Assembly (NCBI GenBank): GCA_051294905.1
Contig: CM119371.1
Coordinates: 36,582,001 to 36,642,000, forward strand
From: Botryllus schlosseri
Lineage: Eukaryota
Direction: 5' to 3'
DNA length: 60,000 nucleotides
The translations under genes were made by a program, and so were the position numbers. The notes under the pieces are model-generated. The model was given only the letters and a program-made list of their open reading frames with translations, had not been told where the DNA came from and ran no database searches. Positions 47,643 through 49,353 of the stretch are shown in pieces (the stretch's first letter is position 1; every line of letters begins with the position of its first letter).

Positions 47643-49353
47643 ATGAATACTTTACTGAAAATGGGAGCTATGCTAGCAATGGCGGCAGTCGCCAACGCCC
47701 AATACTGTGAGACTTTTAGGGTGGCAATTTTTCTAGGAATCATTAGGGATGGTGTGAACGTTAGGTTCACGTTCGCGTTCTGTGTGTGAACCTCAGAAAT
47801 TTAGAGGTTCACGTTCACAAACGAACCTTGGTAGGTTCTGCATCCTTTTTCATATATTACAATTTTCACTTCGTTATAGCATCTTTGGTTAAAATTTATT
47901 GCATTTAAACTGCGATTCACTCTATGCATGACGCTGGTAGCACTAAACGAGCATGCACCTTGACAATCTCAAAAATTTTACTTGCTTGTTACAAAAGTTT
48001 GCTCGAATATTACGTGACTCTCTGCTGTGAGCTTGATTCGCAATCACACAACATTAAGAGCGAAATACTCGACATGTAGCAGGGATATCTAGATATCCCT
48101 GACAAGTGGACATGTGGGTATTCAGAGAATGATGCTTATTCAACCAATCAATGAGATTGATAGCGTTGTCTGATCTAGAAGAATCTAGCAGGCGAACGGA
48201 GTTAATCTTGATTTCGTTTCGCTTCGTATCATAAAACCAAATCCGCGCGATTGGGGTGTTGGCTACTGCTGTATAACTTGTTAACGGAGTAATATCGGTA
48301 ACAAGTAGAGAAACCCGTTTTACACTCTGCCCAATATCAACGTAAAAAATAGCAATACTCAGACGCCGAACACATTGTCCGGTCTGGCTGAGACCGTTAA
48401 GGCGTAAGCTTTTATTCTCTTGTAAGTCCTCGTCGAAATTGTTGTCAAAGCGACGGAAGATATTGATTTTATGGGATTAATTATTATATAATATTTGTTT
48501 GCCCCAGTTGATACATTTGGCGACGCTTAAAACGTCACTATGTACTTCAGCATTGAGGCATTATGCGGCCCGAGTCGTCGCGAGGCATCGTGTATATTAA
48601 TATCGCCTATCACGTCACTGAAATGTAGGGTTGGTATTACCAATACGACGTCACGTGACGTCGTGAGGTTCACGTTCGCGTTCACACAAAACCTTTCAAA
48701 AATGTTCGCGTTCACACGAACCTGAACCTTCCAGAGGTTCACACCATCCCTAGTATCTATCTTGTTGACAAGCAATATACAACTGTAGGCGTGGTCTGTA
48801 TCGATACCTATGCTTTTATCGTGTTTTGGAAGCGGATCATTCGGGCAGATCTGTTACAAAATTCAACCCAGTGATTCTGTTTATCACTTATGTTGATAGG
48901 AAAATATTTAGATCGAGAATTTCATCTGCGATTGCAGCCCAGTTTATGGCTACATATCATGATCATTATCATTACCAAGGACTGTTGTTTCGCTACGTGT
49001 ATAATTGTAGCACGATTGGGGCGTCGCATACACGCATGTTGCATTACTCCATTACCTTAAATTCGCTCGTCCATGTCTAAGATACGTTTTCAATGATATA
49101 GTGCCTATTTGAAGAACTATTCCAAAGCCAAAATTGAAATTGGATCCAAATTTGCCCGAAATCCTCAACTAATCCAAATCCACTGATCTCTCCAGCAATA
49201 TGTTCTGCGCGTGTTTCGTGGCGTTATTGTATAACATCAAACCTATGCTTTTCTGGTTGCCAAACTCCCTATGACTGTTTCAGCGAAATGCATTGTGAAC
49301 ACCGCAAATTCTGCCCAATGCAAGGGATACGAGGAATGTGTGTCTACAATTGA
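47643..49353 (+). pseudogene. Six-cysteine peptide copy B (ancestral exons 47643-47736 and 49256-49353); splice sites damaged, possibly re-spliced
   Basis: MNTLLKMGAMLAMAAVANA|QYCETFRVAIFLG + CQTPYDCFSEMHCEHRKFCPMQGIRGMCVYN*. Donor reads GA and acceptor reads TG where copy A has GT and AG; both exon frames are open. Confidence 0.65.
47744..48752 (-). mobile_element. Copy of the 1987-2859 hAT-type element inserted at the donor site of peptide gene B
   Basis: Same TIR TAGGGATGGTGTGAAC; flanks GAATCAT/GTATCTAT look like a decayed TSD. Confidence 0.85.

Follow-up and report, generated by a model that had tools for sequence, protein, structure and literature searches.

In this ascidian-type genome, copies A and B lie in tandem at a distance of 6.7 kb, each being a spliced-leader trans-spliced gene with three exons, and we consider it probable, albeit with some reserve, that copy B represents a recently disabled and silent paralogue which harbours an old and harmless hAT-type insertion in its first intron. 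Both genes lie in the window, by which we mean the whole stretch of 60,000 nucleotides that was analysed. The canonical donor of copy B (47706|GTGAGA) is intact. According to the favoured reading, the hAT-like element would represent an old insertion that was tolerated within intron 1, 37 nt from this donor and without affecting it, and the copy would have been disabled by an A-to-T substitution at its 3' splice site, which now reads CTG|GT instead of CAG|GT. Further changes would add to this lesion, namely a displaced acceptor in the 3' UTR, alterations in both poly(A) signals and another transposon, located in intron 2. The open reading frame with its six kept Cys codons would indicate that the gene was functional for a long time and was damaged only recently, and not that it acquired a new function. 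What would be left is a hAT-type insertion of an ordinary kind within an intron, and the loss of an acceptor by one base in that copy of the two-gene family which is silent. The first-pass annotation of copy B, which had described a transposon hit on the splice donor with a possible in-frame rescue to an eight-cysteine peptide, is partly confirmed in its observations and partly supported in its interpretation.

Transcripts and gene model of copy A

The RNA evidence comes from four raw RNA runs of the same species (X5, X7, X8 and X9), each sampled at 6-13% and mapped to positions 40700-49700. Transcripts of copy A are abundant in X9 and sparse in X5, and none were seen in X7 and X8. Exon 1 (40874..40974; like all gene features given here, on the + strand) comprises the 5' UTR, the ATG at 40911 and 21 signal-peptide codons plus a single T, and ends 64 nt past the ATG at the donor T|GTACGA, as defined by an RNA joint and by translation. 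It is followed by intron 1 (40975..41429), which is 455 nt long with GT..AG borders, and by exon 2 (41430..41532), the first two letters of which, GT, complete a Cys codon that is followed by CSGPWNCPSKMHCDIRLPCLFGAGRGMCSY and a stop at 41522-41524. Intron 2 (41533..42154; 622 nt, GT..AG) resides within the 3' UTR, and exon 3, the start of which was placed at 42155 by an RNA joint and the alignment, carries two AATAAA signals. The joint from 40974 to 41430 is covered by 69 + 62 = 131 reads with 99 start places in X9 and by 2 reads in X5, and the joint from 41532 to 42155 by 49 + 53 = 102 reads in X9 and 3 reads in X5.

At the 5' end of the gene, a loose leader precedes 40877 in 78 of the X9 reads, which places a trans-splice point at about 40873/40874. 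This leader has 413 genomic matches at up to two mismatches and is identical to the "Chordata 1" spliced-leader consensus as it is given in Table 1 of PMC3795323. An Rfam scan of two leader-bearing loci gave no match. Copy A is a spliced-leader trans-spliced gene of the tunicate type, with the leader joined at an AG acceptor.

These joints also correct the exon 1 that had been drawn at first, which ran 30 nt into the intron. The GT at the start of the transposon target had been taken for the ancestral donor; the transcripts of copy A, however, leave exon 1 at 40974|GT (131 reads in X9, 2 in X5), and no joint from the corresponding position 41004 (G|GTATTTAT) is among those listed for the four runs. 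As a consequence, the mature peptide starts with CC, and the first codon of this adjacent Cys pair is split over intron 1 (T|GT). Since copy A uses the donor at 40974, the homologous donor of copy B at 47706 is the ancestral and intact one. From our point of view, this is where the corrective value of the analysis lies, namely that an intron start which happens to be open and in phase can mislead gene models built from sequence only, and that the transcripts of a paralogue can shift a donor 30 nt upstream.

Copy B compared with copy A

For the comparison of the two copies, a global alignment was made with the element removed from copy B. Homology sets in some 200 nt before the trans-splice acceptor, continues through exon 1, is patchy in intron 1 and extends through exon 2 into donor 2. 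In the exon 1 homologue of copy B (47607..47706), the trans-splice acceptor present in copy A is conserved as a motif (TTTTCACAG|), and the start codon (ATG 47643) and the 21-codon signal followed by a T are kept as in copy A. The coding part of exon 1 is 64 nt long in both copies, and both split a Cys codon as T|GT. Donor 1, which reads TCT|GTACGAAT in copy A and ACT|GTGAGACT in copy B, is intact in the latter (47707..47714) and homologous to the RNA-proven donor of the former. The T|GTGAGA at 47706 that had been proposed as an alternative donor does exist and is in phase, but it is not an alternative: as the homologue of T|GTACGA in copy A it is the canonical donor.

The situation differs at the acceptor of intron 1. 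Where copy A has TTTTCAG|GTTG, an acceptor proven by RNA, copy B has TTTTCTG|GTTG, i.e., an A-to-T substitution that leaves CTG instead of CAG at 49253..49255; the alignment bears out the first-pass annotation on this point. The exon 2 homologue (49256..49357) begins with GT, continues with CQTPYDCFSEMHCEHRKFCPMQGIRGMCVYN and ends its frame with a stop at 49351-49353. All five exon-2 cysteines of copy A are kept in it, which together with the split codon amounts to 6/6 Cys codons, so that the claim of two open exons with all cysteines stands. Donor 2 at 49358 reads GTGAGC (GTGAGT in copy A).

Further downstream, intron 2 measures 622 nt in copy A and about 2.8 kb in copy B, where it contains a second dispersed repeat (50421..51513) with up to 94% identity to its copies and 9,822 first-look candidates in the genome; a search for inverted repeats within this intron yielded nothing useful. 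The exon 3 homologue (52140..52242), which the alignment places at 71% identity, has its acceptor displaced by 5 nt, and the two AATAAA signals of copy A correspond to AATCAA and AGTAAA in copy B. AGTAAA may still serve as a poly(A) signal, as is known from vertebrates. The sole clear lesion in a signal that copy A demonstrably uses is the change from CAG to CTG at 49253-49255.

No joint of at least 3 reads touches copy B in any of the four RNA runs, and this includes the two junctions that had been named for a check, 47706/49196 and 47736/49256. In the bin 47322-47622, which covers the first 16 nt of copy B exon 1 (47607-47622), the depth is 0 in all four runs, compared with an average of about 60 in X9 for the exon-1 bin of copy A. 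Depth was read in bins of 300 nt, which blurs the exon-level depth at copy B exon 2, and copy A, the yardstick for the silence of copy B, is itself clearly expressed in one of the four runs and weakly in another. Two groups of reads that map to the copy B region were considered as possible transcripts and set aside. Those on 47744-48826 have a likeness of 90-95% and loose ends at the border of the element, and were treated as stemming from other element copies, and those around 49378-49403 show fixed mismatches and partial alignment in a repeated stretch and were left uncounted.

The element in intron 1 of copy B

The 1-kb element reported earlier proved to be a hAT-like non-autonomous transposon of 1,009 bp (47744..48752) with perfect 16-bp terminal inverted repeats (TAGGGATGGTGTGAAC; 16/16 complementary) and a member of a dispersed family. 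A DNA search of the assembly (495.5 Mb, 219 contigs) with the element gave 49 scored matches at 77-94% identity among 6,451 first-look candidates. The genome contains 3,933 + 3,968 = 7,901 exact occurrences of the terminal 16-mer, against 0 for the reversed control. A second copy of the family is found inside the window at about 1987-2865.

The element is flanked on its right by the target-site duplication GTATCTAT (48753..48760) and on its left by a decayed version, GGAATCAT (47736..47743), which occupies positions +30 to +37 of the intron and is the "GA donor" of the first-pass annotation. The two agree at 4/8 positions without gaps and at 6 if one base is deleted. The empty site in copy A reads GTATTTAT, so that GTATCTAT represents the original target and the left copy, now GAATCAT, has decayed; target and decay had both been described correctly. 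Among five copies outside the window for which both ends were found, three have duplications that match at 8/8 positions and one at 6/8, and one is discordant.

Duplications of 8 bases and ends starting with TAGGG fit a hAT-type element. As in MITE-like non-autonomous hAT elements of the Ac/Ds type, the family combines 8-bp duplications and short perfect ends starting with TAGGGATG with the lack of a transposase and a copy number in the thousands, and the termini of maize Ac appear to carry a motif very similar to its ends. A difference from the Ac/Ds-type elements is that the host is an ascidian-type animal genome. The longest ORF of the element has no Pfam match, and the element is thus classified as non-autonomous. 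hAT transposase (dimerisation) domains are abundant in the genome, with 150 scored matches and 2,620 candidates, and the terminal 16-mer of the element was found in 0/12 fetched transposase loci, each of which reaches just 1.5 kb to either side.

The element starts at intron 1 position +38, i.e., 37 nt past the copy B donor, which is intact, and the notion of a transposon hit on the donor consequently had to be given up. Relative to a consensus derived from nine further copies, the window copy is 6.8% diverged and shows 10 indel events. To relate this divergence to the state of the gene, neutral change at the 6.8% level was applied in 100,000 simulation runs to the coding exons of copy B and its donor, and in just 3.3% of the runs did the start codon, the open frame, all of the six Cys codons and the donor survive free of indels. 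The calculation is a rough one in which equal neutral rates are assumed and the consensus divergence is taken as the time since insertion. Since so few of the simulated copies keep an intact coding sequence, the result suggests that the coding sequence of copy B stayed under constraint after the insertion, and that the insertion was tolerated. The kept cysteines and the fast-evolving pattern of the peptide (see below) further imply a long functional history of copy B, and the loss of the acceptor is probably recent.

Copy B as a probable disabled duplicate

Copy B shares several features with unprocessed pseudogenes that carry a mutation of the 3' AG: it is likewise a tandem duplicate, it has lost the AG by a single base change, cryptic AGs are present on both sides, and no transcripts were seen in the four runs. 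It also carries a lesion that disables a signal required by its functional paralogue (CAG to CTG, at the joint that is covered by 131 + 2 reads on copy A). A relaxed coding constraint was not found, as the frame is open and 6/6 Cys codons, the start and both donors are kept. An intact frame, start, signal peptide, donors 1 and 2 and set of six cysteines is unexpected for an old pseudogene; unlike typical disabled duplicates, in which the frame and the cysteines would not all be intact, copy B points to an event that is young or not yet fixed. It could be that copy B is expressed in a tissue or stage that was not sampled, and it could also be that the T at 49254 represents an allele or a base error. 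The first-pass annotation had left open whether copy B is a pseudogene or the product of remodelling triggered by the transposon. The pseudogene branch of this interpretation fits the lost acceptor, the degraded 3' signals and the lack of reads in the four runs, whereas the transposon-triggered branch does not hold, since with an intact donor at 47706 a rescue would need nothing but a new acceptor, unrelated to the element.

Alternative readings

A copy B that is transcribed would have to splice at a cryptic AG, and a survey of the AG dinucleotides between 49128 and 49345 leaves two candidates, namely the in-frame AG at 49194 and the frameshifting one at 49282, of which the sequence by itself favours neither. 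The former (49194-49195) lies at the head of a stretch of in-frame former intron (49194..49255) in which the AG is followed by 60 nt encoding S + ICSARVSWRYCITSNLCFSG, while the latter (49282..49283, TGTTTCAG|C), the next AG beyond the lost acceptor, would drop 28 nt; the other AGs, at 49323 and 49332, are located deep inside exon 2. One could therefore imagine that copy B is alive via 49194-49195 and encodes an eight-Cys secreted peptide that is expressed in a tissue, condition or stage outside the sampled ones. The acceptor-like CTCTCCAG| (exon start 49196) is indeed phase-compatible with the donor at 47706 and would give S + ICSARVSWRYCITSNLCFSG + the exon-2 peptide with eight cysteines, just as had been described. 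In such a product, 20 former-intron residues would form the N-terminal third, the first Cys of the CC pair would become Ser, and three new cysteines would be gained, so that their total remains even. In favour of this possibility, the site is the sole AG between 49128 and 49282, 14/20 bases before it are pyrimidines, a branch-like CTAAT motif precedes the junction by about 23 nt, the frame stays open over 71 codons, and the rest of the coding sequence is intact. The 20 added codons contain three Cys codons, and among random 20-codon stretches of the window just 4% of the open ones contain at least three; openness by itself, however, is met with in 34% of such stretches. What makes us regard this shift of the acceptor as quite unlikely is that no junction to exon start 49196 is listed in the four runs and that the depth at the start of the copy B 5' UTR is zero. 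In addition, the homologous stretch of copy A has two stops in the exon-2 frame (it had correctly been called out of frame), which gives no sign of an ancestral coding function, the 18 homologous former-intron codons show no third-position excess between A and B when the alignment is read by eye, the AG that comes first after the former branch region is that at 49282, which shifts the frame, and the 3' processing signals of copy B are degraded. If true, it would mean that a mutation at a splice site sufficed to remodel a disulfide framework in a single step, with the transposon uninvolved, and it would represent a clean natural case of a new cysteine framework born from an intron. The papers retrieved on transposon- or splice-driven changes of cysteine frameworks are, in the parts available, general ones on exonisation and ones on the gene structure of conotoxins.

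The lesion could also be specific to the reference, either as an allele or as a base error, such that other haplotypes carry CAG at 49253-49255 and copy B is an ordinary six-Cys paralogue with an unsampled expression domain. We regard this as doubtful, though less so than a shifted acceptor, because the lesion concerns a single base and everything else needed for coding is intact, because copy A itself is expressed in just one to two of the four runs, and because the RNA reads mismatch the reference widely, which reflects strain variation only in part as many of them stem from other repeat copies. However, no second haplotype copy of B was found in the assembly (the searches gave only A and B), no read supports any copy B transcript, and the altered acceptor in the 3' UTR, the poly(A) changes and the two transposon insertions point to a general decay or to a weaker expression. 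Next to no credence can be given to the original proposal that the transposon inserted into the ancestral donor G|GTATCTAT, destroyed it and thereby triggered the use of a new donor and a new acceptor. It is true that GTATCTAT, the target, starts with GT and that its left copy now starts with GA. The model looked consistent because the 30 nt that separate the target GT from the true donor form an open, in-phase stretch in either copy. Nevertheless, the joints of copy A start from 40974, with none listed from 41004, the copy B homologue of the real donor is intact, and an 8-bp target duplication, as is the rule in this family, would have rebuilt a GT beside the exon anyway. A recent loss of the acceptor in an otherwise well-preserved and silent duplicate is the reading that we consider most likely.

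The peptide family

Independent of the fate of copy B, the two genes define a peptide family that represents a modest find, being expressed, trans-spliced and lineage-restricted with a fast-changing mature sequence. The predicted precursors of A and B would be about 52-53 aa long, of which 21 make up the signal peptide and 31-32 the mature peptide. In copy A, the product comprises the 21-residue signal peptide, the Cys from the split codon T|GT and then CSGPWNCPSKMHCDIRLPCLFGAGRGMCSY, which amounts to a framework of six cysteines, CC-C-C-C-C. The two parts of the precursor differ in how they have diverged between A and B, with dN 0.25 and dS 0.41 in the signal part and dN 0.53 and dS 0.14 in the mature part (Fisher p = 0.046 on rounded counts). 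Invariant cysteines combined with a rapid change elsewhere would correspond to the pattern of fast-evolving secreted disulfide peptides. In families of this kind, such as the conotoxin and knottin toxins or the Cys-rich antimicrobial peptides, a signal is likewise followed by a short mature peptide with invariant cysteines, and, as in A and B, a phase-1 intron separates the two parts.

Relatives were sought at several levels. Genome searches with both exon-2 peptides and the copy A signal peptide detected only A and B, and the same holds for a six-frame scan for the Cys pattern and a tblastn search of the window. For the peptide, Pfam returned 0 families at E values up to 10, and for the 51-aa contiguous reading, a search of 5.8 billion clusters gave no word-sharing protein in the range of 28-90 aa. 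A profile built from the two sequences gave 2 matches among 1.84 billion representatives, both of them long tandem-repeat proteins with many weak stretches, which we judged to be spurious. In a language-model atlas, the copy A exon-2 peptide is nearest to an unnamed cluster of 30 aa (0.89), and cyclotide, Toxin_12 and omega-atracotoxin clusters follow at 0.78-0.85; all of these values are below 0.9 and the clusters are leads only. With 0 Pfam families and no atlas look-alike at 0.9 or above, a profile match that would place the peptides among the inhibitor cystine knots or knottins was not obtained. The classical framework of the inhibitor cystine knot is C-C-CC-C-C, from which the CC-C-C-C-C of A and B differs. 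Taken together, the A/B family appears to be a lineage-restricted secreted six-Cys peptide family without detectable relatives in these searches, and we have filed it under none of the families compared.

Small secreted peptides with six cysteines are described from another ascidian, Synoicum turgens, in the abstracts on its turgencins and St-CRPs (PMC7024374, PMC13208793), the latter being amidated peptides of 18-19 residues. A and B resemble them, at the level of these abstract descriptions, in being small, secreted, of ascidian origin and endowed with six cysteines. By analogy, the A/B family may be regarded as a candidate for an ascidian defence or signalling peptide.

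Transcript structure of copy A

At its 5' end (40874-40877), the mRNA of copy A, the one of the two tandem paralogues for which transcripts were found, carries a spliced leader whose sequence agrees in full with that of the 'Chordata 1' consensus as given in Table 1 of PMC3795323. The 25-mer of this leader has 413 matches genome-wide when up to two mismatches are allowed, and in most of these the leader is followed on its 3' side by G(T), while in 38 exact matches the next base is C. A comparison of two of the genomic copies followed by GT revealed nothing in common between them outside the leader, and an Rfam search with the same two copies matched no family.

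In the reads of X9, the RNA run in which copy A is strongly represented, the two reference letters directly 3' of the trans-splice site (TA, within 40874-40877) are seemingly absent; the reads are soft-clipped from 40877, and the last letters of the leader consensus are ...AAGC. From our point of view, this seeming absence is probably a strain difference.

Directly after the stop codon, copy A has a 3' UTR intron of 622 nt (41533-42154), whose junction is spanned by 102 reads of X9. The donor of this intron is kept in copy B.

Repeats and neighbouring gene

The hAT-like element within intron 1 of copy B is fully covered by RNA reads (47744-48826) in all four runs. Since these reads are 90-95% alike and show loose ends at the edges of the element, it can be concluded that other copies of the family, which comprises about 4,000, are transcribed or are contained within transcripts. 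A second copy lies in minus orientation at 1987-2865 (about 79-82% identity to the element of copy B). The dispersed repeat in intron 2 of copy B (50421-51513), with an identity of at most 94% to its other copies and 9,822 first-look candidates in the genome search, is different from the hAT-like element and younger.

Between copies A and B, RNA reads were also found at 44300-44900 in all four runs (depth about 25-fold in X5). These reads carry fixed mismatches, and loose ends are numerous at positions 44328, 44382, 44643 and 44683. Portions of the stretch are found again near 46000-46960; it probably represents another transcribed repeat.

The ORF of 366 codons on the plus strand at 13904-15004, in which a Pfam search recognised a PH domain (PF00169, E 5.9e-12), is an unrelated gene in the neighbourhood.
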